Positions 29,103 through 57,299 of a stretch of 64,000 nucleotides of DNA are shown one piece after another. The stretch is from Candidatus Kaiserbacteria bacterium. Lineage in GTDB: Bacteria > Patescibacteriota > Minisyncoccia > Phycocordibacterales > UBA918. The notes beneath the pieces are model-generated. The model was not told where the DNA came from and did no database searches. It saw only the letters and a list, made by a program, of their open reading frames with translations. The stretch lies in the NCBI GenBank assembly GCA_031430855.1, contig JANPCG010000013.1, forward strand, positions 26,347-90,346. The letters run 5' to 3'. Both the position numbers and the translations under genes were made by a program. Numbering within the stretch: the first letter of the stretch is position 1; each line of letters begins with the position of its first letter.

Positions 29103-29175
29103 TTTCGGCATTAGGAATAGCCGAAACAACGCTCCGTCGTTCGATCCCTGGACGAAACATGCGCAGGCATGTTTC

Positions 29176-29231
29176 TTATGCGCACAAAATAAAACCGCCC
29201 AGGAGGGCGGTTTTATTTTGTGCGCATACCA
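29176..29231. terminator. 52-nt perfect palindrome that includes the tRNA-Val 3' acceptor end and acts as its terminator
   Basis: tatgcgcacaaaataaaaccgccc-agga-gggcggttttattttgtgcgcata. Confidence 0.5.
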
Positions 29232-29294
29232 GGGATCGAACCTGGGACCTTCCGCATGTCATGCGGACGCTCTAACCAGCTGAGCTATACGCGC
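29221..29294 (-). tRNA. tRNA-Val (anticodon GAC)
   Basis: Acceptor GCGCGTA/TATGCGC, T-loop GGTTCGATCC, anticodon arm tccgc-atGACat-gcgga. Confidence 0.85.
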
Positions 29295-29370
29295 GGTAGT
29301 GGACAGTATACTCAAGTCTTTTAAATCTGCAAAGTAAAACCCACCCAAGTCTGGCGTGACAAGGGTGGGG

Positions 29371-29565
29371 CTAGTAGTTACGGAGATATTCCGTAACTGC
29401 GGCATGGGCAATCTCAGTTGCCGACATGTTGAGTTTTGCTTCAATCTCAAGGAGGCGATTACGAACCGAGTCGTTACCAGCTGCAAGAGCTGCCACGAGC
29501 TGGGCGTGTTCAATCACCAGGTACTTCTTCTCGCTGTCATCCATGATTTCGTCCTTACTTGACAT
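29371..29565 (-). CDS. Small hypothetical protein (64 aa), downstream partner of an overlapping two-gene module
   Basis: ORF overlaps the upstream gene by ~11 nt. Helical and acidic. Confidence 0.4.
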   Translation of the reverse strand: MSSKDEIMDDSEKKYLVIEHAQLVAALAAGNDSVRNRLLEIEAKLNMSATEIAHAAVTEYLRNY

Positions 29566-30004
29566 ACATTGAATATGTTAGCATAATTGCAAACTTTCCG
29601 CAAGCGGCTCGTTCAACCTGTCCTGCTGGGGCTAAAACCCGCATCCATGAGTTATCGCGTTCGGCGTCATTCAGTTTGCGGGAGAGGATTTTAATACTAT
29701 CAATAAGAGTGTTATGTAAGCGGGTGCGCTCGCTGTCCATTTGGGGAAATATTTCTCGCCATTCTTCATCAGTGTAGATTGCTCTGTTTTTGAGCGCTTC
29801 TCCCATTTTCCAGACATCGTTACTGTAGCGAATTGCATAGTTTTTAAACTGTTCAAGTGCCCGTTCACAGAAATCGTCTCCAGCACAAAGAGTTTCAAGT
29901 TCAGCGTAGGTAATAGGGAGATCGAGTTTTAAGCCTTTTTCTACCTTCGTGTTCATATTATCAATGAACGCAGGTGATGGGGTTGGTGTACCTTCTGTTG
30001 TCAT
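29555..30004 (-). CDS. Hypothetical protein (~150 aa), upstream partner of the two-gene module
   Basis: ORF from MTTEGTP with no recognised motif. A Cys pair (CAGDDFC) is present. Confidence 0.4.
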   Translation of the reverse strand: MTTEGTPTPSPAFIDNMNTKVEKGLKLDLPITYAELETLCAGDDFCERALEQFKNYAIRYSNDVWKMGEALKNRAIYTDEEWREIFPQMDSERTRLHNTLIDSIKILSRKLNDAERDNSWMRVLAPAGQVERAACGKFAIMLTYSMYVK

Positions 30005-30095
30005 ATCGCAATAGTATACACGAGAGTGTGCGTAACTTTGAAACAAATACTACGGTACTATATAGCATAGACGCTATACATTATTTTAAATTTTT

Positions 30096-31913
30096 ATGTG
30101 CGGAATTTTTGGATACATTGGAAAAAAGAATGCTACTGAAGTTTTGATTAGTGGATTACGTCTCCTCGAGTATCGTGGGTATGATTCAGCTGGAATCTAT
30201 GTGGCGAGTGGTGGTATCGTCAAAGCAGTCGGTAAGGTTTCATCGCTTGAAGCAAAATTAGCGGAGAATCCGGTTGTTGGTTGTGCGGGGATTGCGCATA
30301 CGCGGTGGGCGACCCATGGAGTGCCATGTGAGGTAAATGCGCATCCTCACACTGAAGCGAGTGAGACGATTTTTCTTGTTCATAATGGCATTATTGAAAA
30401 TTGGCGACAACTCAAAGATGGTTTGGCGGTGCAAGGTATTACCATGGTGGGTGAGACTGATACTGAGGTTCTCACAAAACTGATTGGTAGTTTTTATACC
30501 GGTAACTTGAAACAAGCTGTCGTTGCTGCCCTAGCTCACGTACATGGCACCTATGGTATTGCCGTAATGAGTACTAAAAATCCAAAGGAAATCGTCGTGG
30601 CGCGGATGGGAAGTCCGATTGTTTTGGGTGTAGGTCAACATGAAATGTTTATTTCGTCTGATCCGTCTGCACTGCTTTCCCATACGAAAGAGGTGGTGTA
30701 TCTCGACGATGGTGAAATTGCTGTTGTAACGAATGCTGCCTATGTAGTCACTAGTATTGCTGGGGAATCTCGCCCGAAAGTGTCAGAGATGATGGATTGG
30801 GATGCGTCGGTCGTACAAAAAAATGGATACGCTCATTTTATGTTAAAGGAAATTCACGAAGCTGCAGAGGTGATAGAAAACACCACTCGGGGTCGTCTTT
30901 TAACTGAATCCGGAACAGTAAAGCTGGGCGGCCTCGAGTCAGTCCTCGGGCGGTTGTCGACGATTCGCCGACTCATGATTGTAGGCTGTGGTTCTGCCTA
31001 TTATTCCGGACTCATTGGTCGCTTAATGATAGAAGAGTATGCAGGCTTGCCGGTTGAGGTTGAGCTTGGTAGTGAGTATCGCTATAAACGAAATTTTGGT
31101 GACGTACACACCGCGGTCTTGGCGGTCACGCAATCGGGTGAGACCGCTGATACGTTGGCTTCTGTCCGTTTGGCTAAAGAACTAGGGCTGCTTTCCTTAG
31201 GAATCGTCAACACAGTAGGCTCTACGATATCTCGTGAGACGGATGCTGGCGTTCATAATCACGCCGGTCCAGAGATTGCGGTTGCTTCAACGAAGGCTTT
31301 TATTTCTCAGTTGACGGTGTTTGTGATGCTTACGGTATTTTTAGGTAGACAGCGCAATATGAGTGAGGCTCAGGCCCAGGAGATACTTGCTGCACTTGAA
31401 GCATTGCCACAGGTGCTTGAGGCGATGCTTTCCGACACTACGGCAATTGAGACGGTGGCAAAAAAATACGCATCTGCAAGGGACATTATGTACATCGGCC
31501 GCCAAATGCACGCACCGCTTGCATACGAAGGCTCACTTAAGGTAAAAGAGGTGTCATATATCCACGCTGAAGCGTATGCGGGTGGAGAATTGAAACATGG
31601 TTCGATTGCTATGTTAGGACCAGATTTTCCCGTGTTTGCCATTGCTCCCGAAGACGCGGTTTATGAGAAAATGCTCTCTAATATTGAGGAGGTGAAAGCG
31701 AGACGAGCTCCGGTGATTCTCTTGACTACTGAGGGTGCTCCAGGAGCACGTGAAGTCACGGATGATGTTATCTATGTTCCCAAAGTGCATCCGCTACTCC
31801 AACCAATAGTCACAATCATTCCGCTTCAATTGTTTGCTTACTATATCGGGGTGGCTCGCGGACTTGATGTCGATCAGCCGCGTAATTTAGCCAAGAGTGT
31901 TACGGTTGAGTAG
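30096..31913 (+). CDS. glmS: Glutamine--fructose-6-phosphate aminotransferase
   Basis: MCGIFGYIG N-terminal nucleophile. Two SIS domains. Confidence 0.9.
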   Translation: MCGIFGYIGKKNATEVLISGLRLLEYRGYDSAGIYVASGGIVKAVGKVSSLEAKLAENPVVGCAGIAHTRWATHGVPCEVNAHPHTEASETIFLVHNGIIENWRQLKDGLAVQGITMVGETDTEVLTKLIGSFYTGNLKQAVVAALAHVHGTYGIAVMSTKNPKEIVVARMGSPIVLGVGQHEMFISSDPSALLSHTKEVVYLDDGEIAVVTNAAYVVTSIAGESRPKVSEMMDWDASVVQKNGYAHFMLKEIHEAAEVIENTTRGRLLTESGTVKLGGLESVLGRLSTIRRLMIVGCGSAYYSGLIGRLMIEEYAGLPVEVELGSEYRYKRNFGDVHTAVLAVTQSGETADTLASVRLAKELGLLSLGIVNTVGSTISRETDAGVHNHAGPEIAVASTKAFISQLTVFVMLTVFLGRQRNMSEAQAQEILAALEALPQVLEAMLSDTTAIETVAKKYASARDIMYIGRQMHAPLAYEGSLKVKEVSYIHAEAYAGGELKHGSIAMLGPDFPVFAIAPEDAVYEKMLSNIEEVKARRAPVILLTTEGAPGAREVTDDVIYVPKVHPLLQPIVTIIPLQLFAYYIGVARGLDVDQPRNLAKSVTVE

Positions 31914-31957
31914 GGAGAAAGAAGAGTGATATAATCGTAACGTAATAAAATTTTAGT

Positions 31958-32455
31958 ATGTTAAAAATTAGACGAAAAGCACCGACCTTTACCTTGTTAG
32001 ACCAAGATGCTGAAACCCGAAAATTAAAAGAGTATCTCGGGAAGTGGATGGTGATATATTTCTACCCAAAAGATGACACGCCAGGCTGTACCAAAGAGGC
32101 GTGTATGATTACCGAAGTCTACAAAGATTTTAAAAAGCTCGGGGTGGCAGTCGTTGGGGTGAGTAAAGATACACCCAGGTCACACAAAAAGTTTGCTGAG
32201 AAATACAGTTTACCGTTTACCTTGCTCTCTGATCCGACCATGGAAATGATGGTCAAATATGGCGCCGTCGTAGAAAAGAAAATGTATGGCAAAACCGTCC
32301 GAGGTACCAATCGCATCACATACCTCATTTCACCAGACGGAAAAATTGCAAACGTGTATCCCAATGTTGATCCGGCCGGACATGCGCTCGAACTTTTGAC
32401 CGATATAAAACGCATGCAAAAGGAAGCTAAGAAGGCAGCCAAGGCAGTAGTGTAG
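31958..32455 (+). CDS. bcp: Thiol peroxidase Bcp (peroxiredoxin)
   Basis: YFYPKDDTPGCTKEAC motif. Confidence 0.85.
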   Translation: MLKIRRKAPTFTLLDQDAETRKLKEYLGKWMVIYFYPKDDTPGCTKEACMITEVYKDFKKLGVAVVGVSKDTPRSHKKFAEKYSLPFTLLSDPTMEMMVKYGAVVEKKMYGKTVRGTNRITYLISPDGKIANVYPNVDPAGHALELLTDIKRMQKEAKKAAKAVV

Positions 32456-32460
32456 ATAAC

Positions 32461-32492
32461 AAAAAGCGTTGACTTAGAATCAACGCTTTTTG
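32461..32492. terminator. Rho-independent terminator
   Basis: aaaaagcgttga-cttagaa-tcaacgcttttt. Confidence 0.6.
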
Positions 32493-32565
32493 TATAGGTA
32501 CAAGAATGCGAATCCAAAAATCGGTATAGAAATGGCCGCCTTGTGACGGGCGGCCGCACATCCTG

Positions 32566-33000
32566 TTAGGGTGTGGTAATCAGTTGTTGCCAACGTCGGT
32601 GACGGTGGTGGTAGAAATTTTGGGCAAAAAACCAAATCAGAAGCGTTTGCCATCCCGCTTCGATGTCGATTGTGTCTACGAGGCGACACTCTCCGGGGTA
32701 ATCTTCAAGTAATTGCATGGTGTGATTCCATTTTGTTACGGAACCACCTTTTTCATGGGTGACGATTTTGTGCTCGTCATCACTCCGCGAGATCACGGTA
32801 ACAAAATGATCTCCTTGGGGCTTTCCCCACAGTCGCGGCCGGAGGTTGATCGTTTTCCCGACTTCCCATTCGGTTGGGAGATCTATGGTGTCGTATGTCA
32901 TCACTCCTTCCGTCACAAACCGAAGGGTTTCGGTTTGTTTGAGCTTTTCCCAGACTGCTCCAATTGGAGCTTGCAGGGTTGAAGTTACGGTAACTCTCAT
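32566..33000 (-). CDS. SRPBCC-like (polyketide cyclase/AHSA1-like) small protein
   Basis: 144-aa ORF with a fold-family pattern only. Confidence 0.4.
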   Translation of the reverse strand: MRVTVTSTLQAPIGAVWEKLKQTETLRFVTEGVMTYDTIDLPTEWEVGKTINLRPRLWGKPQGDHFVTVISRSDDEHKIVTHEKGGSVTKWNHTMQLLEDYPGECRLVDTIDIEAGWQTLLIWFFAQNFYHHRHRRWQQLITTP

Positions 33001-33144
33001 CGATGTTCTCCGGGATGGTTGATGCGCAGGGGATCCCTGTTCTCAATGTATCATAGCATAAAAGTCTTAATAAGACAACATCTTTATAAAAAAGCAATAG
33101 ACTTTGTAAAGTCATTGTCAGATAAAATGTATATACAAGGGAAT

Positions 33145-33176
33145 AAAAAAAGGGCGCCACACGTGCGCCCTTTCGG
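33145..33176 (-). terminator. Terminator of the GC-rich gene
   Basis: aaaaaaagggcgc-cacacg-tgcgccctttcgg. Confidence 0.55.
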
Positions 33177-33212
33177 TGCTTATGTGACGACCTAGGGTCG
33201 TGGCAGCCTGAT

Positions 33213-34061
33213 TCAGGCGGCCTTGGTTTCTTTGTCCGTCGACTCGCCGACTTCGGCTTCGTCGATTGGGTCAAGGATCTTGGCCGAGATGATCGTGCCG
33301 ATACCTTTCTGCTGCATCTTGAGCAGAACACGACGAGGGTCGCCGTCACCGTATGCGGCGATTGCTTGCCGCACTTCTTCTTCCACCTTGGCGCGAATGG
33401 GATCGTCCAGTGCAGCAAGGGTCGCGATCTGGTCGGCCGTCAGGTCGCCGGTATACGGCTCGGCGGACATTTCGGCTCGGCGCCCGCGTACCATCGACTG
33501 CAGCATTGCCATGAAGTCAGACGGTCCGTTTTCTTCGTCACCTGCAGCTGCGAGGACATCGAATTCGACGTCCGCGCCATCCTTGATAGCTGTGGTCTTG
33601 ATTCGGCTGGGGTCGTTGTTCGCCCGCGAGGCGATTAGCTTCCGTAACGCTTCTTCCACCTCGGTCTGAATGTCTTCATTCGCTTCGGCAAGGGTCGCGA
33701 TCTGGTCGGCCGTCAGGTCGCCTGCGTACGGTTCGACTTCTTTTTCGCGCAGCATCGCCCGCATCATGGTAGCGAACGGGCTGAGGTTCTTTTCCCGGTC
33801 TGGGGAGAAGGCATCCTCAAACAGCTGCTCCATAAAACCGCCGAGGTTCGGTCCCTTCGACGACTTTGGACGCTGGTCCGATTTGCCGTCGAGTTTGCCG
33901 GCCTTCTTGATCTTCTTCAGGCGTTTCTTAGCGCCTTTTTCGATCATGTGCGTGAACATGCTCTTTTGCGCTTCGCTGAGCGAATCAGAGAAGACTTTGG
34001 CGCAGATACATCCTTCGCCGCAGCCGATTCCAGCCGCTGCCATCATTTTGGTAAGGTTCAT
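33213..34061 (-). CDS. Hypothetical protein with internal tandem repeat, markedly GC-rich relative to the window
   Basis: 282-aa ORF with N-terminal GIGCGEGCICAK. Two ~45-aa repeats (EPY[AT]GDLTADQIATLA...) are encoded by near-identical 36-nt DNA segments. GC3 is high. Confidence 0.5.
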   Translation of the reverse strand: MNLTKMMAAAGIGCGEGCICAKVFSDSLSEAQKSMFTHMIEKGAKKRLKKIKKAGKLDGKSDQRPKSSKGPNLGGFMEQLFEDAFSPDREKNLSPFATMMRAMLREKEVEPYAGDLTADQIATLAEANEDIQTEVEEALRKLIASRANNDPSRIKTTAIKDGADVEFDVLAAAGDEENGPSDFMAMLQSMVRGRRAEMSAEPYTGDLTADQIATLAALDDPIRAKVEEEVRQAIAAYGDGDPRRVLLKMQQKGIGTIISAKILDPIDEAEVGESTDKETKAA

Positions 34062-34230
34062 TTTGGTATATCCTCCGATGTTGGTACCAAGGGTAATAAA
34101 TTATCACATTATTGAAAAATGTCAAATGGGGGTGGGTGGCGTTTGGGTATTATTTGAGCGCGAAATTGAAGCCTTTTGCTCTGTGGTCATCACTCGAGTA
34201 CGAAACTGAAGCAGTTCAGAAAGCCCTCGT

Positions 34231-34321
34231 GGTCACGAATCACTAAGTATATTTGTTCACTGCGTTCCAAATCTACTAAGTGTTCTCGACCCGAGAAACA
34301 GTGTTTAGACACTGTTTCTCC
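34231..34321 (+). repeat. Modular intergenic repeat, units A+B
   Basis: A-unit: ggtcacgaatcactaagtatatttgttcactgcgttccaaatctactaagtgttctcgaccc. B-unit hairpin: gagaaacagtg-tttagac-actgtttctcc. The units recur at 56.7 kb, 57.1 kb and 36.4-36.7 kb. Confidence 0.55.
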
Positions 34322-34380
34322 GACGGTTTCTTTTTTCTATAAATGAAAAAGAAACATCGCTGCGGTTATCACAACGGCCC

Positions 34381-34447
34381 GCAAGTGACGCAGGTCACTT
34401 GCTAGATTAGAAAATACCCCAGCATTTGCTGGGGTATTTTCTAATCT
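34381..34447. repeat. Pair of perfect hairpins (GCAG-loop hairpin plus 20-bp AT-flanked hairpin)
   Basis: gcaagtgac-GCAG-gtcacttgc, then tagattagaaaataccccagc-attt-gctggggtattttctaatcta. Confidence 0.5.
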
Positions 34448-34830
34448 GCCGTTGTGTTCCCACGGGTAATGATCCTGACGGTCACCAAGCTATATTTTTT
34501 CATTTCATTCAAAATCTAGCAGGTGCCGCGGGACACGCCTCATTCATAGCAAAGCTATATCATTCCGGCGTTTCGATTACCGCAAAAGACACGCAGATGT
34601 CTTTTTCGTGGGATCACGCAACAAAAACGGCATTCACAGATGTGAATGCTCGTTTTTGTACGCGTGATCCCACGGGTAATCGAAACCCGATTTTCAGGAT
34701 GAAAACCTGATGTCCTAACCGTTAGACGATGGGACCCTAATTCCTAGGGTTTGTAACTTCATTCCTTAGGTGCGCACTATAATACCAAAAAAGTCAAAAA
34801 AAGCTAGTCATAAGGACAAGTTTTCTCTGT

Positions 34831-34870
34831 TGCGGAAGCGAGAGGATTCGAACATTACATGTTCGGTACA
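34831..34870 (-). repeat. Partial direct copy of the tRNA-Ser 3' end (23 nt) plus conserved junction palindrome
   Basis: tgcggaagcgagaggattcgaac matches 34953-34975 exactly. It is followed by ATTACATGTTCGGTACA, forming GAACAT-TAC-ATGTTC. Confidence 0.6.
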
Positions 34871-34954
34871 CCTTTCGTATCGTACCCACTCCGTTCCGTG
34901 CGATGTACTTAAGGTCTTCAAATCCTCTTTTGAAACTGACGTTTCAAATTCCTG

Positions 34955-35042
34955 CGGAAGCGAGAGGATTCGAACCTCCGAGGAGCTTTCACCCCTGCCG
35001 CTTTTCGAGAGCGGTACCTTCAGCCAGCTCAGACACGCTTCC
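34955..35042 (-). tRNA. tRNA-Ser (anticodon CGA)
   Basis: Class-II tRNA. Acceptor GGAAGCG/CGCTTCC, anticodon arm ccgct-ctCGAaa-agcgg, long variable arm, T-loop GGTTCGAATCC. Confidence 0.85.
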
Positions 35043-35324
35043 AAGCGTATAGCTAACAAGTATAACATTGCGGGCAAATATTTCGGAATTTGGAGGCAGA
35101 TTTCACTAACAGTTATACAGCTATTTATATACCTAGTTTTACCCCTAGTTATCCTCTGGCTTTTCCCCATGATATACACAGGTACTATTAAAAATATGGG
35201 TTTTATACTTTATTGACGAGAGTTTCCTATGTGAGATGCTTATTGCAGGTTTGCATGGTGGTGATTTTCTCCATACTAAAACTCTTTTGGGTTGGGGCAT
35301 GCAAGCCAAATCTCTACGTTGTAC

Positions 35325-35363
35325 AAAAGCAAAACGCTTCCCTTGGGAAGCGTTTTGCTTTTT
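35325..35363 (-). terminator. trxB terminator
   Basis: aaagcaaaacgcttccc-ttg-ggaagcgttttgcttttt, a perfect 17-bp stem. Confidence 0.6.
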
Positions 35364-35372
35364 ATGCTTAGA

Positions 35373-36296
35373 TTAATGGGCCATCAGCGTGACGTAGATA
35401 TCCTCTAGCGCCTTGACACCATCACCTGCGGAGATGTTGTTTTGGTGGTATTTAACATTAGTACAGTCACCGGCAGCCCATACTCCCGGAGTCGCGGTTT
35501 TTTGAGTCCAGGGATCAATTTCAATCCGACCGTAGGTATCAAGCGCTACCACGTCTTTAGCAAATGAGGTATTTGGAATCATGCCAATTTCAACAAAGAT
35601 TCCAGTGACTGGGAGGGTTTCAGTTGTCCCTTCAGCTGTGGTGTAGGTGAGTCCATTTACAAATTTTTCGGCTACTACAGCAGTTGGTTTAACATTTAAG
35701 AGGGCACGCATGTTAGGGTGAGCGAGAACTTTTTCGGTGGTGACCGCGTCAGCTTTAAAGGCAGGGCCTTTATGGAGTAGGGTAACAGATTTCGCGTAGG
35801 CAAGAAGTTGCGCGGCGGTTTCAAAACCGGCGTTACCGCCACCAATTACGGCGACGTCTTGTCCTGCAAAAATCGGACCGTCGCAGCTGGCGCAGTAGGT
35901 CACTCCTTTATGTTCAAAGGCATCAGCGCCGGGTACATCGAGACGACGGCGACTCGAACCGCTTGCAATCAAAATTGCTCGGGCAGTGTGAGTTTCACTG
36001 TTGTCTAGCGTGACCGTAAATGTCCCATCACTTTCTTTTAATAGGTGCTGCGCTGTGCGGCCAGCAGTAATCGTGACATATCCATCAGCGTAGGCTTCGA
36101 GGTGAGTTTTTAAATCGTTTGCGAGTTTGGTTCCGGCTATGGCAGGGGTTCCTATCCAGTTTTGGATTTCAACGGAGACTGTACTCTGTCCGCCCCAGTC
36201 AGTCGTGATAAAAAGAGTTTTAAGTCGTTTGCGCGCTGCGTATACTCCAGCTGAAATTCCGGCTGGTCCACCACCAATGATAATCAAATCGTACAT
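35373..36296 (-). CDS. trxB: Thioredoxin-disulfide reductase
   Basis: MYDLIIIGGGPAG FAD motif, CASCDG redox centre, GGGNAG NADPH motif. Start placed at MYDLII. Confidence 0.85.
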   Translation of the reverse strand: MYDLIIIGGGPAGISAGVYAARKRLKTLFITTDWGGQSTVSVEIQNWIGTPAIAGTKLANDLKTHLEAYADGYVTITAGRTAQHLLKESDGTFTVTLDNSETHTARAILIASGSSRRRLDVPGADAFEHKGVTYCASCDGPIFAGQDVAVIGGGNAGFETAAQLLAYAKSVTLLHKGPAFKADAVTTEKVLAHPNMRALLNVKPTAVVAEKFVNGLTYTTAEGTTETLPVTGIFVEIGMIPNTSFAKDVVALDTYGRIEIDPWTQKTATPGVWAAGDCTNVKYHQNNISAGDGVKALEDIYVTLMAH

Positions 36297-36425
36297 ACAA
36301 AAACTGAAATTGCTAAGTGAAGAGTAGTTTAGCATATTTTGATGAGAGGGATGTGGGAATAAGAAAACCAGCCGGGTGGGCTGGGTTTCTTGGTCTGAAG
36401 ATTTTTGGAAAGAAATACCGGCACC

Positions 36426-36487
36426 GGTCACAAGTTACTAACCATAATCATTCGCTACGCTCTGATTCTAGTAAGTACTTGCGACCC
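36426..36487 (+). repeat. A-unit repeat copy (36.4 kb, a)
   Basis: ggtcacaagttactaaccataatcattcgctacgctctgattctagtaagtacttgcgacccc. Confidence 0.5.
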
Positions 36488-36603
36488 CGGCGGGCTGGTT
36501 CAGGGCATTAGTAATAGCCCTTCACATCGCTCCGCCTCGCCGTTCCGGCTTCTTGCTAGTCAAAACTTATTTAAGTTTTGATCGACGCAAGAAAGCCGGC
36601 ACC

Positions 36604-36665
36604 GGTCACGAGTCACTAATCATAATGGTTCGTTTCACTCCCCTTCTGATAAGTGCTCGCGACCC
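36604..36665 (+). repeat. A-unit repeat copy (36.6 kb, b), in the ftsZ 3' region
   Basis: ggtcacgagtcactaatcataatggttcgtttcactccccttctgataagtgctcgcgacccc. The terminal stem covaries with copy a (caag/cttg versus cgag/ctcg). Confidence 0.5.
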
Positions 36666-36715
36666 CGCCTTGCTGTCTCGGCTTCGCCTCGTATCGCTGC
36701 GGCCGGCAGTGCCTT

Positions 36716-42918: not shown

Positions 42919-42920
42919 GG

Positions 42921-49973: not shown

Positions 49974-49974
49974 T

Positions 49975-50642: not shown

Positions 50643-50732
50643 AGTTGTACACAGCCCCCTAAAAACCCTTTATGGTAAACGTTTTTTAGTGTATACTGTA
50701 GGGAATTAATATTTTATTTAATTAATTACGTC

Positions 50733-51110: not shown

Positions 51111-51146
51111 GCTGGTACGGCGAAGAATTCAAAAAAACTGCACAGG

Positions 51147-51524: not shown

Positions 51525-51601
51525 TGTAAAAAAGAAACCCCCCGCTGGCCAAGATGGCACGTGCGGGGGGGGTTGAAGGTCCTTCGATTCGTCTGAAGAA
51601 C

Positions 51602-52564: not shown

Positions 52565-52576
52565 TGGTGTTTCCTT

Positions 52577-53287: not shown

Positions 53288-53595
53288 GATATGGCTCCTT
53301 TGTGTTTATGTTGTCAACGAGCGAGACTCGTCGGTATGGTTGGGGTTTTCTGCAGTGGTACTTGTCCAGGCAGTAGTCGCCCCTTCTGCTACTATAATAG
53401 CATAAATAACTCTAAAAGTCAAGTTATGGGTAGCTAAACGAGCTATAAATAGCAACGTTAATTTGATGTTGTACATAACGTGAGCGACATGAGTACCGGC
53501 AAGACCTGTATAGAAGGCGAGGTTCTGCGTTAGTGATGAATATTGGAGTTGCGGTGCTGGTTACTGCGCGGTATCATTCCGGCACAATAGTTTAT

Positions 53596-54642
53596 ATGAA
53601 TCTCGAAACCCCAAGACAATTTCGTGATGCACGACCGCGCGATGAAAAGCGGGCTGCCATCTTGGCTGATGTGCGCACGCGTACGACGTTGTCGTTTTAC
53701 CGTTACGTAAAAATTACTGATCCGGTAGCGTTCCGCCTGCGACTGCTTAATGCGCTTGCCCAGTTTGAATGTCTGGGTCGTGTCTACGTCGCTCACGAGG
53801 GGATTAATGCTCAGATGAATGTGGTGAGCGAAAATTTTACTGCGCTTGATGCCTGGGTTCAGTCTCAGCCAGAATTGTCAGGGATATTGTATAAAATTGC
53901 CGTTGCAGAAAAGGATTTCTCTTCGTTCTATAAACTAACTATTAAAGTAAAGGAAAAGATTGTGGCTGATGGCCTTAATGATGCCAGTTTTGATGTCACG
54001 AACACTGGTGAGTACCTCACTGCCGCTGAGATGAATGAGTATATTGATGATCCAGATGCAATTGTCGTTGATATGCGGAATGCGTATGAGAGTGAAATTG
54101 GTCATTTTGTTGGTGCGGTTAAACCGGATGTTGATACCTTCCGCGAAGAATTAGCAATCGCGCCGTCTCTGTTGCGGGTCCATCAGAACAAAAAAATTGC
54201 CCTTTACTGTACCGGTGGAATACGATGCGAGAAGGCGAGTGCGTGGCTCAAGCATAATGGGTTTGAAAACGTGCGTCACCTCAAGGGTGGGATTATAGAC
54301 TATGCGCATCAAGTGAAAGAACAGGGGCTCGAGAATAAGTTCCTCGGTTCTAACTTTGTCTTTGATGAACGATTAGGAGAACGGGTAGGCGATGAAGTTA
54401 TTTCACACTGCCATTTGTGTAGCAAACAAAAAACGGATACCCACTATCACTGCAAAAATCAAATCTGCCACGTTTTGTTTCTTGGCTGTGATGATTGTGT
54501 AGCAAAGCGGCATGGCTATTGTTCTGGTCGGTGTGAAATGTCTGATAAATTACCGGTTAGTGTGAAAAAAGTATTTGCCCGATATTACAACCAGTATTTC
54601 CGCCGGCCGCAGTTCAAGAAAGCTCGATTTCGTGCCTTATAG
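53596..54642 (+). CDS. trhO: Rhodanese-domain tRNA uridine(34) hydroxylase TrhO (YceA/UPF0176)
   Basis: GRVYVAHEGINAQ, rhodanese loop CTGGIRCEKAS, C-terminal Cys cluster. Confidence 0.8.
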   Translation: MNLETPRQFRDARPRDEKRAAILADVRTRTTLSFYRYVKITDPVAFRLRLLNALAQFECLGRVYVAHEGINAQMNVVSENFTALDAWVQSQPELSGILYKIAVAEKDFSSFYKLTIKVKEKIVADGLNDASFDVTNTGEYLTAAEMNEYIDDPDAIVVDMRNAYESEIGHFVGAVKPDVDTFREELAIAPSLLRVHQNKKIALYCTGGIRCEKASAWLKHNGFENVRHLKGGIIDYAHQVKEQGLENKFLGSNFVFDERLGERVGDEVISHCHLCSKQKTDTHYHCKNQICHVLFLGCDDCVAKRHGYCSGRCEMSDKLPVSVKKVFARYYNQYFRRPQFKKARFRAL

Positions 54643-54676
54643 TCCTCAGGCTTGGTTGTGTTAGAGTAGAGATATT

Positions 54677-56191
54677 ATGGATACGAAAGGGTCTAATCCG
54701 AAGCGAATTACCTCTGTGTACTATGATGGGAGCTGTCCAATGTGTACGGCGTTTGTGGGAGCTACCGCGGCCAAAGACGAGACCTTATTTGCACTCCATG
54801 ATGTCATCATTGATTCACTGCCTGCAGACTTCACCAGAGAAGCGGTCCTGAAGGAAATGCATGTCGTTGGTGCCGATGGGACAGTATATACCAACGCCGA
54901 GGCGATACTGCAGATATTAGATACGGTGCAGTATTGGCGACGAATCACCTGGATTGGACGACTGCCGGTGGTGCGGAATGTATTGCCGGTGGGGTACGGT
55001 ATTGTGGCGCGTAACCGACACTTTATTTTCGGACCCGCGAGCCGGTTGTTTTGGGTGAAGAATGTCGCTTTGCTGGGGCTACTCTCCAGTATGGCGCTGT
55101 CGTTTCCTTTGTGGGTGCAAACGGATAGTATTGCAGCGGTACCTGTCTTTGGTCGACTTCCAATTCTCTCACCGTTAATTGAATGGGGAATGTATATAGG
55201 GGTGTTTTGTTTAGCCTTGGTTAGTTTGATTTCGCCTAGGCCACAGCGTTACTTGTGTGGACTATTGGGTATTGTGGCGGTATTTGTACTGTTTGATCAA
55301 TTGCGTCTTCAGCCATGGCTCTATCAGTATTGGTTTATGCTACTGCCACTTGCTGTGTATTCGTGGCAGTGGCGAGATAGGGTATCGACGAATGCGGTTC
55401 TCAATACCCTCCGGATTTTAATTGCGGGGATATATTTTTATAGTGGGCTACAGAAAATTAACCCAATGTTTTTCCAAGAGGTGTTTCCCTGGATGGTAGA
55501 ACCAATTGCCGCGTTTCTCCCGACCTCTCTTAATTTAATACCAGCGAGTTTTGGATTATTTGTCCCGTTTATTGAAATAGGGATTGGTATAGGATTGCTT
55601 ACAAAACGATTTAGGTTTGCTGCTTTGGTTGGAGTTATTTGCATGATGGTATTCGTTCTCATCACACTTGGACCTCTTGGTTATGGTTGGAATAGTGTCG
55701 TCTGGCCATGGAATTTAGCTATAGCGGCGTCAGCGTGGCTGTTGTATTACAAGACCGCTAATGTTTCTTTTAAAAACGTATTTAGAGTAAGGCACTTTCT
55801 GCCTCATAAAGTAATCATTTTACTTTTTCTTGTAATGCCTGCCTTCAGCTTTTTTGGGTATTGGGATTCGTACCCATCCTATTCGTTGTATTCGGGGAAC
55901 ATAACTGACGCCCAAGTATTCGTATCATCTAAATTGGTAAGTCCAGCTTTAGAAAATGCAGCGTTTTTAGCTTATGGTGGTATGGTCTGGATAGACCTCC
56001 AGACACTTTCGTTTAATGAACGTAATGTGCCGATGTATCCTGAGACAAGAATCTACACGAAAGTATTTGCTCAGCTATGTGAGACTGAGTTGCCAGTCAC
56101 GGCTGAACTCGTCGTGACGACCAAAACCACGTTGCTGCAACCCCAGAGAGAATTACGGTATAAGTGTGAAAATATGTTGAGTAGTGATTGA
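54677..56191 (+). CDS. DCC-family thiol-disulfide oxidoreductase (DUF393) fused to an HTTM-like polytopic membrane domain
   Basis: N-terminal VYYDGSCPMC (DCC motif), then ~10 TM helices rich in Trp and Tyr. Confidence 0.5.
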   Translation: MDTKGSNPKRITSVYYDGSCPMCTAFVGATAAKDETLFALHDVIIDSLPADFTREAVLKEMHVVGADGTVYTNAEAILQILDTVQYWRRITWIGRLPVVRNVLPVGYGIVARNRHFIFGPASRLFWVKNVALLGLLSSMALSFPLWVQTDSIAAVPVFGRLPILSPLIEWGMYIGVFCLALVSLISPRPQRYLCGLLGIVAVFVLFDQLRLQPWLYQYWFMLLPLAVYSWQWRDRVSTNAVLNTLRILIAGIYFYSGLQKINPMFFQEVFPWMVEPIAAFLPTSLNLIPASFGLFVPFIEIGIGIGLLTKRFRFAALVGVICMMVFVLITLGPLGYGWNSVVWPWNLAIAASAWLLYYKTANVSFKNVFRVRHFLPHKVIILLFLVMPAFSFFGYWDSYPSYSLYSGNITDAQVFVSSKLVSPALENAAFLAYGGMVWIDLQTLSFNERNVPMYPETRIYTKVFAQLCETELPVTAELVVTTKTTLLQPQRELRYKCENMLSSD

Positions 56192-56200
56192 GATAAATAT

Positions 56201-56236
56201 AAATAAATCCCTCATAAGAACGAGGGATTTATTTTT
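56201..56236. terminator. Bidirectional terminator
   Basis: aaataaatccctc-ataagaacg-agggatttattt. Confidence 0.55.
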
Positions 56237-56353
56237 ATGAGAGTAACACGAAGAGAGTGCGCGCGTGCGAGGTGACGGGGGCACCGCGCAAGACCATTTG
56301 AGCTTATTTTGACCGAAGGGAGTAAATGAGCCAAATGGTATACAGCTTCGGTA

Positions 56354-56386
56354 CGAAGAGGACTTGAATCTTACAGATTCTGTACA
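56354..56386 (-). repeat. Degenerate partial copy of the tRNA-Leu(TAG) 3' end plus covarying junction palindrome
   Basis: gaagaggacttgaatc, compared with the tRNA's gagaggacttgaacc. It is followed by TTACAGATTCTGTACA, forming GAATCT-TAC-AGATTC. Confidence 0.5.
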
Positions 56387-56432
56387 CCTTTTGGATATAT
56401 TCTCCCGCCGGTCGAATCTATCGCAAAAGGTT

Positions 56433-56485
56433 TTGAAACAGTTTCCCAAACTGTTTCAACCTCCACGGATTGCTCCATTAGTTCC
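56433..56485 (-). repeat. Perfect 12-bp hairpin plus a 28-nt exact copy of an internal tRNA-Leu(TAG) segment
   Basis: ttgaaacagttt-ccca-aactgtttcaa. aacctccacggattgctccattagttcc matches 56528-56555 exactly. Confidence 0.5.
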
Positions 56486-56509
56486 ATTTTGTTTGTAAAC
56501 CTTTCAAAG

Positions 56510-56591
56510 TGCGCGCGAGAGGACTTGAACCTCCACGGATTGCTCCATTAGTTCCTAAGACTAACGCGGCTACCAATTACGCCACACGCGC
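56510..56591 (-). tRNA. tRNA-Leu (anticodon TAG)
   Basis: Class-II tRNA. Acceptor GCGCGTG/CGCGCGC (one G-U pair), anticodon arm ttagt-ctTAGga-actaa, long variable arm, T-loop GGTTCAAGTCC. Confidence 0.85.
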
Positions 56592-56672
56592 ACTTTGAAA
56601 ACTTTACTGTGTCGACGAGTATAGCATGAAAATAGGGGTTTGCCAGGGTTGGTGGTCGCACCAAGATTCTGT

Positions 56673-56767
56673 GGTCACAGATAATTTCTTTCATAAATTT
56701 CCGCGACCCGAGAAACAGTGTTTAGACACTGTTTCTCCCACTGTCGCAGGGCGACATGTCTCCGTCT
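56673..56767 (+). repeat. Modular intergenic repeat, units A'(short)+B+C
   Basis: ggtcacagataatttctttcataaatttccgcgaccc + gagaaacagtgtttagacactgtttctcc + cactgtcgcagggcgacatgtctccgtct. Confidence 0.55.
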
Positions 56768-56780
56768 CGCACCAGAGCAC

Positions 56781-56845
56781 GTATCTGCCGCAGGGCAGAT
56801 ACCAAACAATAAATACCATTCATTTGAATGGTATTTTATTGTTTG
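56781..56845 (-). terminator. GCAG-loop hairpin plus 19-bp perfect hairpin terminator of tRNA-Lys
   Basis: gtatctgcc-GCAG-ggcagatac, then caaacaataaataccattc-attt-gaatggtattttattgtttg. Confidence 0.55.
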
Positions 56846-56848
56846 CTC

Positions 56849-56924
56849 TGGTGCGCCCTCAAGGATTCGAACCTTGGACCGTCTCCTTAAGAGGGAGCTA
56901 CTCTACCAACTGAGTTAAGGGCGC
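56849..56924 (-). tRNA. tRNA-Lys (anticodon CTT), CCA encoded
   Basis: Acceptor GCGCCCT/AGGGCGC, D-loop AGTTGGTA, anticodon loop ctCTTaa, T-loop GGTTCGAATCC, 3' ACCA. Confidence 0.8.
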
Positions 56925-57000
56925 ATTGCTATGTATTAGTACATACGACCCGGCGTTCTTAATGAGGGCAAAGTGCATGGGATGCAGTTTGCGCGACACT

Positions 57001-57020
57001 ACTGAGTTAAGGGTGCAATG
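57001..57020 (-). repeat. Partial copy of the tRNA-Lys 5' acceptor/D-arm segment
   Basis: actgagttaagggtgcaatg, compared with actgagttaagggcgcattg at 56909-56928 (18 of 20 identical). Confidence 0.45.
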
Positions 57021-57090
57021 TATTAAGTTGTGGGCCAAAGTGTACAAGATTATGACCAAATTAACAAGGTATTAGTAGGGGCGTGACTTG

Positions 57091-57186
57091 GTCGCAAATC
57101 ACTAAGTATATTTGTTCACTTCGTTCCAAATTTACTAAGTGTTTGCGACCCCGACTCAACTGTCGCAGAGCGACATGTTTCCGTCT
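57091..57186 (+). repeat. Modular intergenic repeat, units A+C
   Basis: ggtcgcaaatcactaagtatatttgttcacttcgttccaaatttactaagtgtttgcgacc + caactgtcgcagagcgacatgtttccgtct. Confidence 0.55.
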
Positions 57187-57299
57187 TTCAAGTCCCGCAC
57201 GCAAGCAAAGCAGTTTGCTTGCTCCCCGGCACAAAATACAACTACCGCAAGCTATTGCTTGCGGTAGTTGTATTTTGTGCCGGGGAGCGGGACTTGAAC
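57187..57299. repeat. ~110-nt palindrome made of two inverted copies of the tRNA-Leu(TAA) T-arm/acceptor 3' segment around a perfect 19-bp hairpin
   Basis: Left arm ttcaagtcccgc[gcaagcaaa-GCAG-tttgcttgc]tccccggcac. Centre aaaatacaactaccgcaagc-tatt-gcttgcggtagttgtatttt. Right arm gtgccggggagcgggacttgaa. Confidence 0.55.

Follow-up and report, generated by a model that had tools for sequence, protein, structure and literature searches.

The window, that is, the entire stretch of 64,000 nucleotides analysed here, which belongs to a Paceibacteria MAG, contains six hairpins with a 9-bp stem and a GCAG loop, five of which are perfect. The four perfect copies listed in the first-pass annotation were all recovered, at 29154-29175, 34381-34402, 56781-56802 and 57201-57222, the second one ending one base before the 34403 originally assigned. 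A hairpin taken there for a looser variant at 34586-34603 is indeed imperfect, but it is a full 9-bp hairpin extending over 34584-34605, whose single non-Watson-Crick pair is C.A on the plus strand and U.G on the minus strand. The sixth copy (19914-19935), previously missed, shows CTGC on the plus strand and lies behind tRNA-Phe, the only plus-strand tRNA among those of the six hairpins. The number of perfect copies is far above the random expectation (five compared to 485 x 0.25^9 = 0.002), and 300 first-order Markov simulations gave 0. The loop is enriched as well, with GCAG/CUGC in five of the 24 hairpins with a stem of at least 9 bp and a 4-nt loop (P = 9e-7). A chance origin of the recurring hairpins is excluded. 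The suspected bias towards tRNA genes was stronger than claimed: all six copies are located 3' of a tRNA gene and read CUGC in the loop on the tRNA's own strand, GCAG being the reverse complement thereof. Four copies lie 45-59 nt from the tRNA end, and the other two belong to older, distal units at distances of 207 and 262 nt. The hairpin, referred to as hp9 and described on the tRNA strand in the following, splits a stretch that is antisense to the 3'-terminal ~20 nt of the neighbouring tRNA.

Behind tRNA-Phe (19789-19863, plus strand), hp9 has the sequence GUAAAGCGC-CUGC-GCGCUUUAC (19914-19935, plus; 51 nt 3' of the gene) and is flanked on the same strand by an anti-acceptor segment (19902-19913) and an anti-T segment (19939-19948). 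A second, distal unit behind the same gene carries a decayed hp9 homologue with 7 of 9 pairs and a UAAU loop (20099-20120, plus). All other tRNAs and elements of the window mentioned below are on the minus strand. The hairpin GAAACAUGC-CUGC-GCAUGUUUC (29154-29175, GCAG on the plus strand) lies 45 nt 3' of tRNA-Val (29220-29294). Its anti-T segment CCAGGGAUCGAAC (29139-29151) is a perfect complement of tRNA-Val positions 53-65 and accounts for the 13-bp base helix P1; the anti-acceptor segment GUGCGCAUA (29177-29185) and a bidirectional terminator hairpin (29186-29219), together covering 29177-29219, combine with the 3' end of tRNA-Val into the long arm (PY) of a Y-shaped fold. Facing U68, this antisense has an A, whereas the 5' strand of the tRNA itself has G5 there; it is therefore a true complement and not a copy of the tRNA 5' half. 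The body of the Val element (29043-29127) consists of the hairpins H2 (29102-29127) and H1 (29043-29096), and downstream, a repeat of the tRNA end is no longer recognisable in this element. Behind tRNA-Glu (34664-34736), the hairpin AAAAGACAU-CUGC-GUGUCUUUU with its one U.G pair (34584-34605, 59 nt from the gene) is embedded between anti-T (34570-34582) and anti-acceptor (34607-34619), and the downstream direct repeat DR2, AUUACCCGUGGGAACAC (34454-34470), copies tRNA-Glu positions 58-74 with one mismatch. It is followed by the older, distal unit B1 (34231-34453) with the hairpin GCAAGUGAC-CUGC-GUCACUUGC (34381-34402), the 3' flank of which, CCGUUGUG (34370-34377), pairs with CACAACGG just past the displaced tRNA-Glu end.

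The copy GUAUCUGCC-CUGC-GGCAGAUAC (56781-56802) lies 47 nt 3' of tRNA-Lys (56849-56924). On its 3' side, the flank CUCUGGUGCG (56768-56777) pairs with CGCACCAGAG, which comprises the tRNA end and the trailer, and a terminator hairpin (56811-56836) is located between these two partners. The T1-type body of this element (56673-56756) comprises P2 (UGUCGC-CCU-GCGACA, 56742-56756), an extra hairpin (56712-56735) and H1 (56673-56709). Behind tRNA-Leu(taa) (57429-57513), a proximal T2-type element without hp9 (57277-57428) ends in GUACCGAACAUGUAAUGUUCAAGUCC (57290-57315), overlapping a DR2 (57277-57299) that repeats the tRNA 3' end from position 53. The distal T1 unit at this locus carries the family consensus of hp9, GCAAGCAAA-CUGC-UUUGCUUGC (57201-57222), with anti-T at 57187-57197 and anti-acceptor at 57223-57232, followed by a T1 body (57090-57175; P2 57161-57175, H1 57090-57152) and a decayed copy of the tRNA-Leu end, AAGUCACGCCCCUAC. 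The two P2 hairpins had been annotated as 'C-unit' hairpins related to hp9; they turned out to be a separate module within the same elements, namely the variable P2 hairpin of the T1-type body. There are two further T2 elements. The one behind tRNA-Ser (34954-35042), at 34832-34953, has a head hairpin of 8-9 bp with a GUCA loop (34929-34949) and a DR2 that repeats 22 nt of the tRNA 3' end exactly (34832-34853), and the variant one behind tRNA-Leu(tag) (56509-56591), at 56360-56508, contains a sense duplicate of tRNA positions ~36-58 (56455-56484), a 10-12-bp hairpin with a GGG loop (56435-56457) and a decayed DR2. Two tandem T1-like units at 36426-36666 have no tRNA nearby (H1 at 36604-36666 and 36426-36488); their 9-bp head hairpin, UCAAAACUU-AAAU-AAGUUUUGA (36560-36581), is situated between mutually complementary segments.

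The GCAG hairpins are hp9 read as its reverse complement, and hp9 constitutes the conserved head module in a family of tRNA/tmRNA-linked elements of 92-338 nt, which are composed of antisense, hp9, antisense and two conserved hairpin domains. On the tRNA strand, the tRNA 3' end is followed by a bidirectional terminator hairpin in roughly half of the elements, a segment complementary to the acceptor 3' strand, a single A, hp9, GU(G/C), approximately 12 nt antisense to the T-loop and the 3' strand of the T-stem, GAA(A), and a body of two hairpin domains of several types (T1, T2 and others). At the end of the element, the 3' end of the tRNA is usually repeated in direct orientation, most commonly from T-loop position 56 onwards. 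At five loci of the window, tRNA tail, terminator and antisense adopt a common Y shape with predicted energies of -55 to -85 kcal/mol and z-scores of -11 to -15, and hp9 emerges from it after 11-13 bp counted from the base. hp9 and the body motif are separated by a constant 16-17 nt. The tRNA-sense strand is the better-folding one in 42 of 48 elements (p = 1e-7), so that the folding strand is the one with the CUGC loop, and GCAG as the loop, as initially assumed, is not supported. Within the window, downstream repeats are decayed or gone while antisense segments and hp9 have stayed perfect, which we count as maintenance in situ.

All nine hp9 pairs show changes on both sides. Among the elements of relatives, the hairpin at this position is exactly 9 bp long in 20 of 47 cases, and 9 bp is also the modal stem length if the elements are defined without reference to the hairpin. 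The two-sided changes and the modal length support hp9 as a selected or maintained structure rather than a conserved sequence. Selection on structure, as proposed in the first-pass annotation, is in this respect borne out, albeit for an arm embedded in a larger element instead of a free-standing signal; the stems, described there as unrelated in sequence, have diverged from a single consensus (GCAAGCAAA on the GCAG strand), and their outer pair is G-C in 20 of 26 copies. Constancy of the loop holds within the window, but not across the family, where CUGC was found in 10 of 31 relatives' hairpins of at least 7 bp, besides GGG, UGUUA, GGAA and other loops. Base helix and hp9 consist almost entirely of Watson-Crick pairs (G.U in 4 of 234 hp9 pairs), and substitutions in anti-T preserve pairing by wobble in 62 cases and do not in 46, a difference that is not significant; this pattern fits copying at the DNA level. 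In the T1 body, compensatory changes affect 16 of 22 pairs, and a G.U pair is invariant in 11 of 11 sequences, the latter pointing to RNA instead.

Of 21 positions in the antisense flanks, 17.6 agree with the element's own tRNA, compared to 14.9 with other tRNAs, and the 9-nt anti-acceptor segment is a perfect match in 11 of 36 cases. An exact 12-nt repeat of the 3' end occurs within 450 nt downstream of 39 of the 264 relatives' tRNAs and upstream of none of them; an anti-T segment is present downstream of 62 and upstream of 6 of these tRNAs. The left edge of the repeat is most often tRNA position 56 (33 of 83 cases), and the repeats may be arranged in tandem up to three times, with the distal copies being more decayed. 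Presence of the elements varies between close genomes: the Cys element is absent from L005 (87% IF-2 identity), and L006 is devoid of three of the elements. One single hp9 sequence was found on over 120 metagenome contigs behind 31 tRNA species and tmRNA, at distances of 10-279 nt (median 50). A few units lie away from any tRNA, namely those at 36426-36666 and an orphan copy in L052 that has a -10 box of its own and is not preceded by a tRNA, and elements at non-tRNA sites still have flank-complementary segments. The family is widespread in Patescibacteria, ultra-small bacteria, and searches of Rfam, phage records, plasmid records and the literature gave no match. The hp9 element is a small non-coding element without earlier description, and the phenomenon seen in the first-pass annotation is confirmed on a larger scale, with its interpretation partly supported; a recombination or processing signal and a protein-recognised hairpin both stay live classes of explanation.

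Our preferred reading, to which we give slightly less than even chances, is that the elements are non-autonomous insertions homing into the T-loops of tRNA and tmRNA genes, with hp9 as the fixed-length arm of a recognition fold. It draws on the common anatomy and fold, the target-specific complementarity, the direct repeats and their serial arrangement, the differences in presence, the spread over many tRNA species, the structural conservation and the maintenance in situ. According to the mechanism that we infer, the element would insert at the T-loop and supply a replacement 3' end, often including a terminator, such that the gene would remain intact while the old 3' end would be displaced downstream and decay there. 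In the single-stranded element, the antisense segment would pair with the tRNA-tail sequence and create a Y-shaped junction, with hp9 as the short fixed arm and a long variable arm above a base helix of 11-13 bp. This junction may be recognised by a putative protein encoded elsewhere in the genome, either a recombinase or nuclease with folded DNA as its substrate or an enzyme that processes the transcribed RNA, so that the active form could be single-stranded DNA or RNA. hp9 would then be an architectural arm defined by its length, with a sequence free to drift. No recombinase, transposase, reverse transcriptase or nuclease gene was found in the window or the element interiors, and no excised form, circular form or exact pair of empty and filled sites was seen. 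Against insertion speaks also that the antisense fits more than 30 different targets while hp9 is nearly identical. The few units away from any tRNA and the uncertain transcription of elements behind a terminator-like hairpin weigh against this reading as well.

A trailer serving the host, in which antisense, hp9 and antisense act in cis as an RNA device within the tRNA transcription unit, is in our view unlikely. Read-through past the tRNA end or terminator would let the trailer pair with the tRNA 3' half, yielding a processing stalk for RNase III, P or Z or refolding the transcript for degradation over maturation. The module is co-oriented with the tRNA and starts 4-60 nt after it, and since 17 of 38 hp9-bearing elements have no intervening terminator-like hairpin, co-transcription with the tRNA is expected for these; in the other 21 such a hairpin precedes hp9 and transcription of the element is therefore uncertain. 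The extreme stability of the predicted fold, the RNA-typical invariant G.U pair of the body and the perfect antisense beside a decaying repeat, which argues for function in place, would also suit a trailer. It is at odds with the restriction of the module to a minority of tRNAs, with close relatives lacking it at the same tRNA, and with direct repeats and tandem arrays, which are signatures of insertion without a role in processing; moreover, the pairing would destroy the tRNA in the making, and the helices are almost free of wobble pairs. Somewhat less probable still is a stand-alone small RNA that mimics or captures the tRNA top half, forming a pre-tRNA-like complex for RNase P, RNase Z or the CCA-adding enzyme, or a decoy. 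Here, the anti-acceptor would serve as the acceptor 5' strand, A plus hp9 would replace positions 9-48, GUG plus anti-T would represent the variable loop and T-stem 5' strand, and pairing would occur in cis with the downstream repeat or in trans with 3' fragments of tRNA. Such an RNA is suggested by minimum-free-energy folds of the element plus DR2, which are closed by anti:DR2 stems with hp9 as side arm, by the borders of hp9 (a G at its start, a C at its end, A before and GU(G/C) after it), which resemble A9-G10...C25 and G46-U47-C48 of tRNA, by the 5-bp-stem, 7-nt-loop hairpin with UGUAA at the end of T2 bodies, which fits the T-loop-like U..RA pattern, and by the L052 orphan. Where the repeats differ, however, the antisense matches the upstream copy and not DR2, which in the window is decayed or absent next to perfect antisense; pairing extends through position 73-74 and the trailer, leaving no free NCCA-like end, the T-loop is paired instead of looped, and the tRNA-like models of Rfam give no match.

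We regard it as improbable that the structures are largely neutral DNA palindromes, with hp9 and the bodies as unrelated selfish or relic sequences without a role in recognition. Correction of quasi-palindromes by template switching is an established route of mutation, and intra-strand switching at the tRNA terminator hairpin could extend a palindrome into the 3' end of the tRNA and keep it perfect. The long arms come close to perfect Watson-Crick palindromes with the terminator loop at their centre, the balance of wobble and non-wobble substitutions in anti-T conforms to this, and the 'empty' tRNA-Cys terminator in L006 reaches 4 nt into the tRNA end. Palindromes would leave unexplained an extra 22-nt hairpin in one arm only, at fixed distances to the base (11-13 bp) and to the body motif (16-17 nt), the modal 9-bp length, direct repeats starting at position 56 and the common hp9 sequence behind 31 tRNA species. 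Even more doubtful is a guide RNA analogous to transposon-encoded guides (omega RNA, bridge RNA), with hp9 as protein handle and the flanks as a split guide directing a recombinase or nuclease against the tRNA 3' end. A constant hairpin between two target-complementary segments, a structurally conserved body of guide-scaffold size (about 100 nt) and the flank-complementary segments at non-tRNA sites are compatible with it, but no effector gene lies nearby, both segments read one strand contiguously, unlike bridge RNA loops, the guide would be occupied by its own target immediately upstream in cis, and Rfam again yielded no match.

Among known systems, REP/REPIN and PATE are non-autonomous hairpin elements mobilised by RAYT or IS200/IS605 TnpA. 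Like hp9 elements, they are short, non-coding, extragenic and multicopy, often lie by terminators and have no enzyme gene of their own, but the sequence of REPs and PATEs is preserved within a genome and their target is not copied, whereas hp9 stems differ between copies in one genome and have target-derived flanks; hp9 elements also lack a GTAG foot and possess target direct repeats, which IS200/IS605 insertions do not make. The E. coli tyrT repeats are 178-bp units with the last ~19 nt of tRNA-Tyr, and resemble our elements as tandem units behind a tRNA gene that each end in a copy of its 3' end; they are confined to a single locus and one tRNA and have neither an antisense copy nor a conserved hairpin head. 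In tRNA-like processing signals (plant mitochondrial t-elements, mascRNA, RNase P external guide sequences and RNase Z small-guide complexes), a surrogate 5' strand likewise forms a helix similar to the tRNA top half with an acceptor/T 3' strand, and a lone hairpin takes the place of the D and anticodon domains. In hp9 elements, by contrast, pairing covers discriminator, trailer and T-loop, leaving no free 3' end and no elbow, and the preferred partner is the real upstream tRNA. Integron attC sites and the attP(+) hairpin of CTX phage share with hp9 elements an imperfect palindrome whose structure is conserved over sequence, strand-specific folding, an asymmetric extra-helical feature on one arm, a variable terminal hairpin cap, arrays of small units and sense plus antisense copies of the site on one strand. 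They differ in that the extra-helical feature of hp9 elements is an entire 22-nt hairpin; there is no R/L box consensus, GTTCRAN of the T-arm only approximates GTTRRRY, and no IntI or attI platform was seen. Tyrosine-integrase islands and prophages at tRNA or tmRNA T-loops also insert into the 3' part of the gene, generate a direct repeat from the T-loop to the 3' end, supply the replacement 3' end and accrete in tandem with decay of the displaced copies. The hp9 elements are set apart from them by a length of 92-338 nt without integrase or any ORF, by an antisense copy of the attachment sequence that is split by a hairpin, and by near-identical head modules behind over 30 tRNA species.

The four perfect hairpins reported in the first-pass annotation, each with a 9-bp stem and a GCAG loop on the + strand (hereafter hp9), are present at positions 29154-29175, 34381-34402, 56781-56802 and 57201-57222 of the window. 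What had been described as a looser variant is a complete 9-bp hairpin (34584-34605) with one non-Watson-Crick pair (C.A when read on the + strand, U.G when read on the - strand). A sixth copy, overlooked in that annotation, lies at 19914-19935 with CTGC on the + strand, downstream of tRNA-Phe, the sole + strand tRNA among the hairpin-bearing set. The proposed bias towards tRNA genes holds without exception, since all GCAG hairpins are located downstream of a tRNA gene and on the strand of that tRNA, where the loop reads CUGC. Their frequency is also far above the random expectation, with five perfect copies observed compared to 0.002 expected and none in 300 Markov simulations, and the GCAG loop is found in 5 of the 24 hairpins with a stem of at least 9 bp and a 4-nt loop (P = 9e-7). 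Simulation and loop P value together rule out chance or base composition as the origin of the hairpins. The stems of the six copies are all different, at up to six stem positions, and hp9 has been kept perfectly paired in this genome despite this divergence and despite decayed downstream repeats. A relationship to the so-called C-unit hairpins (tgtcgc-agRg-gcgaca), which had also been suggested, does not exist: these represent the variable hairpin P2 of one body type, T1, of the elements described below.

At each hp9 of the window, the 3' end of the adjacent tRNA recurs in inverted orientation, and hp9 splits this copy. At the tRNA-Val locus, the order on the tRNA strand is ...GGUUCGAUCCCUGG UAUGCGCAC, a bidirectional terminator, GUGCGCAUA, A, hp9, GU and CCAGGGAUCGAAC, where the 5' flank of hp9 is complementary to the acceptor 3' strand (anti-acceptor) and its 3' flank to the T-stem 3' strand plus the T-loop (anti-T). 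The same arrangement is found at tRNA-Glu, tRNA-Phe and the distal Leu(taa) unit; in the tRNA-Lys element and in B1, the older, distal unit behind tRNA-Glu, the 3' flank of hp9 pairs with the last tRNA bases and the trailer instead. Single-strand folding of five window loci yielded a common Y shape, consisting of a base helix of 11-13 bp, a long arm capped by the terminator and hp9 as side arm, with energies of -55 to -85 kcal/mol and z-scores of -11 to -15. The junction strands next to hp9 comprise 1 nt (A) on one side and GU or GUG (up to 3 nt) on the other, and the target strand is paired without a break across the junction. The Val antisense carries an A opposite U68, whereas the tRNA's own 5' strand has G5, and is therefore a true complement rather than a duplicated 5' half. 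A degenerate second copy of the tRNA 5' half is thereby excluded as the source of such segments, the antisense being a perfect complement of the 3' strand that reaches into T-loop and trailer. Derivation from cDNA of a mature tRNA, or from a retroviral-style primer-binding site, is excluded as well, because the antisense tracks the genomic trailer and terminator and not CCA.

Downstream of the antisense segment follow GAA(A) and a body with two hairpin domains, which in body type T1 are the hairpins H1 and P2. In four units of the window, the H1 loop contains a 28-nt sequence, TATATTTGTTCACTTCGTTCCAAATCTA, with 82-100% identity (34248-34275, 34491-34518, 57107-57134 and 57564-57591, + strand); it is more conserved than the surrounding stems and absent from relatives, where the H1 tips are AU-rich with AGCA-type loops. 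A kissing interaction of CUGC with the AGCA loops of H1 was considered and dropped, as the two loops co-occur inconsistently. Two tandem T1-like units on the - strand (36426-36666), bounded by repeats of GGUGCCGG(C/U)..UUUCUU, are located between a thioredoxin-reductase-like gene and ftsZ with no tRNA nearby, and one of them has a 9-bp head hairpin with an AAAU loop whose flanks are complementary to each other; this type of element is thus not strictly bound to tRNA genes. Also on the - strand, there are two tRNA fragments in sense orientation, namely a decayed tRNA-Lys 5' end upstream of the real gene (56991-57016) and a fragment downstream of tRNA-Leu(tag) with 97% identity to the variable arm and T-stem of this tRNA (56455-56484).

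The window belongs to contig JAYTDW010000013.1 of MAG GCA_043735715.1. Its genes are housekeeping genes, including glmS, ftsZ, ftsA, valS, infB, clpB, gyrA, lepA and murJ. Relatives of its IF-2 belong to the Paceibacteria/Parcubacteria group of the Patescibacteria, the nearest one being from a Kaiserbacteria MAG (87% identity). Nine tRNA genes are dispersed across the window, each with a promoter-like site of its own. An ORF at 16-1251 (+) consists mostly of acidic repeats, each 21 nt (7 aa) long and of the form (E/D)A(E/D)DLLDEA, and is weakly similar to a peptidoglycan-binding domain and DUF4398. In addition, a composite motif occurs twice (9047-9088 and 10015-10056, + strand), in which a terminator hairpin is directly followed by TTTGCTATACTGTG, an extended -10-like box; a TGCTATACT box also precedes tRNA-Leu(tag). 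The motif looks like a reusable terminator-promoter junction of this genome.

The family was examined in a comparison set of 80 infB-centred loci taken from other genomes (together with the window, 1.26 Mb), which is biased to infB neighbourhoods and for which the non-CPR control loci contributed one usable tRNA only. In this set, GCAG/CTGC is the most frequent loop among hairpins with a stem of at least 7 bp and a 4-nt loop, and the stems of the hairpins carrying it are mostly exactly 9 bp long and follow a tRNA at a distance of 4-50 nt. Of 281 tRNAs, 49 have their last 14 nt repeated 78-319 nt downstream. Exact 12-mer repeats of the tRNA 3' end occur downstream of 39 of 264 tRNAs and upstream of none, and an anti-T segment downstream of 62 and upstream of 6 of the same 264. 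The element is the sequence between the two copies of the tRNA end, in the order antisense, hp9, antisense, body and repeat, and is 92-338 nt long. The body is of type T1 (GCCGGAG..GAGGCGGGGUCGNG..CNCGUGACC), of type T2 (CCUUUUG..CAAAAGGUGUACUG-N5-UGUAA-N5') or of other types. The repeat most often starts at tRNA position 56, which lies in the T-loop, and up to three repeats are found in series, with more decay in those of the distal units.

Pairs were counted in an hp9 alignment whose members had been chosen for forming hairpins, so that its 100% pairing is circular; the unbiased set is that of the elements defined by repeat and anti-T segment alone. In 20 of 47 of the latter, the hairpin directly upstream is 9 bp long, and 10 of 31 hairpins of at least 7 bp have a CUGC loop. 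Loops at the hp9 position in the family include CUGC, GGG, UGUUA and GGAA. The outer pair is G-C in 20/26 copies, and hp9 is preceded by A in 35/47 and followed by GUG or GUC in 23/47. hp9 and the body motif CGGA are separated by a constant 16-17 nt, and the antisense segments match their own tRNA at 17.6 of 21 positions compared to 14.9 for other tRNAs. hp9 is an arm of fixed length and tolerant sequence that keeps a constant distance to the element body and lies between target-complementary segments.

A scan of metagenomes with the consensus hairpin GNAAGCAAA-CUGC-UUUGCUUNC-GU, biased to this one hp9 sequence, gave matches in at least 120 contigs. Among the 130 matches listed, 80 follow tRNAs of 31 anticodon species at a distance of 10-279 nt (median 50), and a further 9 follow tmRNA genes. 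In the metagenome loci L219, L220, L257, L267, L272, L285, L301 and L326, tmRNA (ssrA) genes have hp9-headed elements 41-256 nt past their 3' end, and the antisense flanks of these elements match the tmRNA tail GUGGAGAUGGA. Locus L052 carries an orphan T2 element (4120-4300, - strand) whose hp9 has the CUGC loop and whose 3' end resembles that of tRNA-Leu; ARAGORN finds no tRNA in the whole 6.6-kb locus, and a TATAAT box is located about 70 nt upstream.

With regard to the folding strand, 42 of 48 elements fold more stably on the tRNA-sense strand than on the opposite one, with a mean difference of 6.2 kcal/mol (p = 1e-7). In the T1 body, 16 of 22 pairs show compensatory changes, and one G.U pair is invariant in 11/11 sequences; as this pair would be a C.A mismatch on the opposite strand, the tRNA strand is the one that folds. 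Whether it does so as RNA or as single-stranded DNA is suggested differently by different parts of the element. The invariant G.U pair of the body would fit RNA, as would the fact that elements and tRNA are co-oriented, and hp9 and base helix are almost wholly Watson-Crick paired (G.U in 4 of 234 hp9 pairs), which would suit copying at the DNA level. A wobble bias in the base helix fails as proof of RNA, since the 62 wobble-type compared to 46 other substitutions in the anti-T segment are not a significant excess. By a crude A-run/T-run proxy, a terminator-like hairpin lies between tRNA and hp9 in 21 of the 38 hp9-bearing elements, and the predicted co-transcription of the remaining 17 with their tRNA would meet no such barrier.

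The elements differ in occurrence between close relatives. In the closest one (L005), tRNA-Leu follows tRNA-Cys after 29 nt without the element present there in the window, and in L006 elements are missing behind tRNA-Cys, tRNA-Leu(taa) and tRNA-Lys. In L236 (4158-4725, - strand), a decayed tRNA end and a terminator are followed by five identical 136-nt T1 units in perfect tandem, and the array, which could be a recent amplification or an assembly effect, stops within a sixth hp9. Judged from sequence, the direct repeats, the tandem accretion, this array and the presence of one head behind 31 tRNA species and tmRNA argue for repeated insertion. The T-loops of tRNA and tmRNA genes are classic targets for integrase-borne islands.

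No enzyme gene is present inside the elements, which contain no ORF, or in the window, and no recombinase was detected in the window or as a recurrent neighbour of 146 loci. Clustering of 876 neighbouring ORFs from these 146 loci returned housekeeping genes and two homing-endonuclease-like families, both located at tRNA genes outside the elements and flanked by partial or whole tRNA duplicates. Long repeat-bounded inserts contain only a GIY-YIG ORF, an IS and a racemase. The first family comprises small GIY-YIG nuclease ORFs of 84-128 aa, of which the two that were tested match PF01541; they lie within 8-55 nt of a tRNA gene, at L065 7766-8026, L073 11476-11742 and 14984-15367, L076 12383-12637, L215 7963-8241, L237 3325-3591 and L240 657-908. 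Their insertion point is the T-loop or a position after it, they have a decayed partial copy or a second copy of the same tRNA next to them, and they look like free-standing homing-endonuclease genes targeting tRNA genes. The ORFs of the other family, 203-245 aa long, have an N-terminal HTH, which is all that Pfam recognises, and the motif 'LYWAEGSK...NSDP'; they were found at L283 4217-4906, L213 853-1548, L323 176-784 and 1155-1832, L313 4786-5412, L063 12084-12818, L221 2764-3420 and L249 350-1006. Each of them is followed after 6-36 nt by a tRNA gene in the same orientation, one lying between two tRNA-Met copies, and they may constitute a second homing-endonuclease-like family at tRNA genes.

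Taken together, hp9 is very likely a module of a family of tRNA-tail insertion elements. The specific mechanism proposed in the following has, in our view, an even chance at best. We infer that the Y-junction formed by tRNA tail, antisense copy and hp9 might be read by a protein encoded elsewhere, either as an attachment site in folded form, used in insertion into the T-loop, by a logic analogous to that of attC or attP(+), or alternatively as an RNA junction for processing. The renewal of both antisense flanks at each new tRNA around a constant hp9 could occur by copying from the target during insertion or by palindrome-driven template switching afterwards. Since the head hairpin is constant while the flanks track the target, the system would in principle be re-targetable. 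It is conceivable, though we consider it unlikely, that the elements form a programmable, structure-guided system, in which a transcript or single strand, bearing a constant 22-nt hairpin handle between two target-copied antisense segments, captures with these segments the 3' half of tRNA/tmRNA genes or transcripts and directs its own insertion or processing via a protein family with no prior link to mobile DNA; if true, ultra-small bacteria would have their own, new mode of target-templated homing.

If the family is confirmed, about one seventh (repeat, 39/264) to one quarter (antisense, 62/264) of the tRNA genes sampled from a major bacterial radiation have a small structured passenger, in which the tRNA tail is copied in both orientations. 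It would be a new family among the few elements recognised by shape rather than sequence, and would account for the 'extra' tRNA fragments and odd repeats in assemblies of Patescibacteria. The elements point to a candidate enzyme reading a Y-shaped junction built on the universal T-arm, and bear on the integrity of tRNA genes in tiny genomes attacked by T-loop-seeking selfish DNA, a site shared by the homing-endonuclease-like genes.

Among known hairpins, hp9 is excluded as a simple terminator: it has no U-run, is followed by GU(G/C) and the antisense segment, and terminator scans flag only its neighbour at 56811-56836, never hp9 itself. Its loops belong to none of the stable tetraloop classes GNRA, UNCG and CUUG. 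In Rfam, only tRNAs of the window pass the gathering thresholds of the covariance models, a permissive search (E = 10) of 56300-57800 and L014 gave noise matches to miRNA models only, and the tRNA-clan models do not match the elements. No phage matched window positions 28000-36000 by megablast, no phage or plasmid matched the unit 57075-57270 by blastn, and motif scans of IMG/VR gave only random-looking matches, none beside a tRNA. A full-text literature search did not find these elements described. Several RNA classes were rejected on their anatomy. The junction strands of 1 nt (A) and 3 nt (GUG) are not the CUGANGA/GAAA of a hammerhead ribozyme, for which Rfam gives no match either. An H/ACA-type guide pocket, which leaves two target nucleotides unpaired and has a K-turn in its upper stem, is incompatible with a target strand continuously paired at the junction and with the lack of ACA-box spacing, and a tRNA-like substrate of RNase P, RNase Z or the CCA enzyme, defined by a 12-bp acceptor/T stack, a free discriminator/3' end and a T-loop elbow, with pairing that covers positions 73-74, the trailer and the T-loop. 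Elements of 92-338 nt with two body hairpins and no Intron_gpI match even at E = 10 are not group I introns, which possess a catalytic core P3-P9. IS110 bridge RNAs and IS1111 seekRNAs, whose guides read opposite strands of target and donor, were rejected because there is no adjacent recombinase and both segments complement the same strand contiguously.

The closest likenesses are to elements that insert at defined sites. With the integrative elements targeting tRNA and tmRNA genes, the family shares the site, the direct repeat from T-loop to 3' end, the accretion and also the tmRNA targets, but those elements carry an integrase, whereas the present ones have 92-338 nt and neither integrase nor ORF. 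Integron attC sites resemble them in being structure-defined palindromes with a variable tip and a one-sided asymmetry; in attC as in the CTX-phage attP(+) hairpin, both halves of the site are on one strand. Compared to the attC boxes (RYYYAAC ... GTTRRRY), the T-arm sequence GTTCRAN is one position off GTTRRRY, and the loci examined contain no IntI. attP(+), a folded ssDNA hairpin that mimics the chromosomal site and is integrated by XerCD at dif, is likewise structure-defined, and the hairpin modelled in silico here would replicate the T-arm/acceptor duplex of the tRNA gene. The Val anti-acceptor GUGCGCAUAA (29177-29186, - strand) agrees at 10 of 11 bases with the XerC-binding arm of E. coli dif, GGTGCGCATAA; being nothing more than the tRNA-Val tail in complement, the segment probably has this likeness by coincidence. 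PATE/MITE derived from IS200/IS605 have similar sub-terminal hairpins at both ends and insert 3' of a 4-5-nt target with no duplication, in contrast to the unlike ends (hp9 versus H1 or the UGUAA hairpin) and the 12-22-nt target duplication observed here. REP/REPIN are near-identical copies with a GTAG foot and a RAYT, unlike the six differing stems with the foot A|G...C|GUG in a window that contains no RAYT. Since site, repeat and accretion are insertion-like, terminators, REP/REPIN, PATE and the RNA classes above were rejected and the searches of Rfam, of phage and plasmid records and of the literature gave no match, we file the elements as non-autonomous site-specific insertions at tRNA genes, a known kind, and there is a real chance that their mechanism is new.
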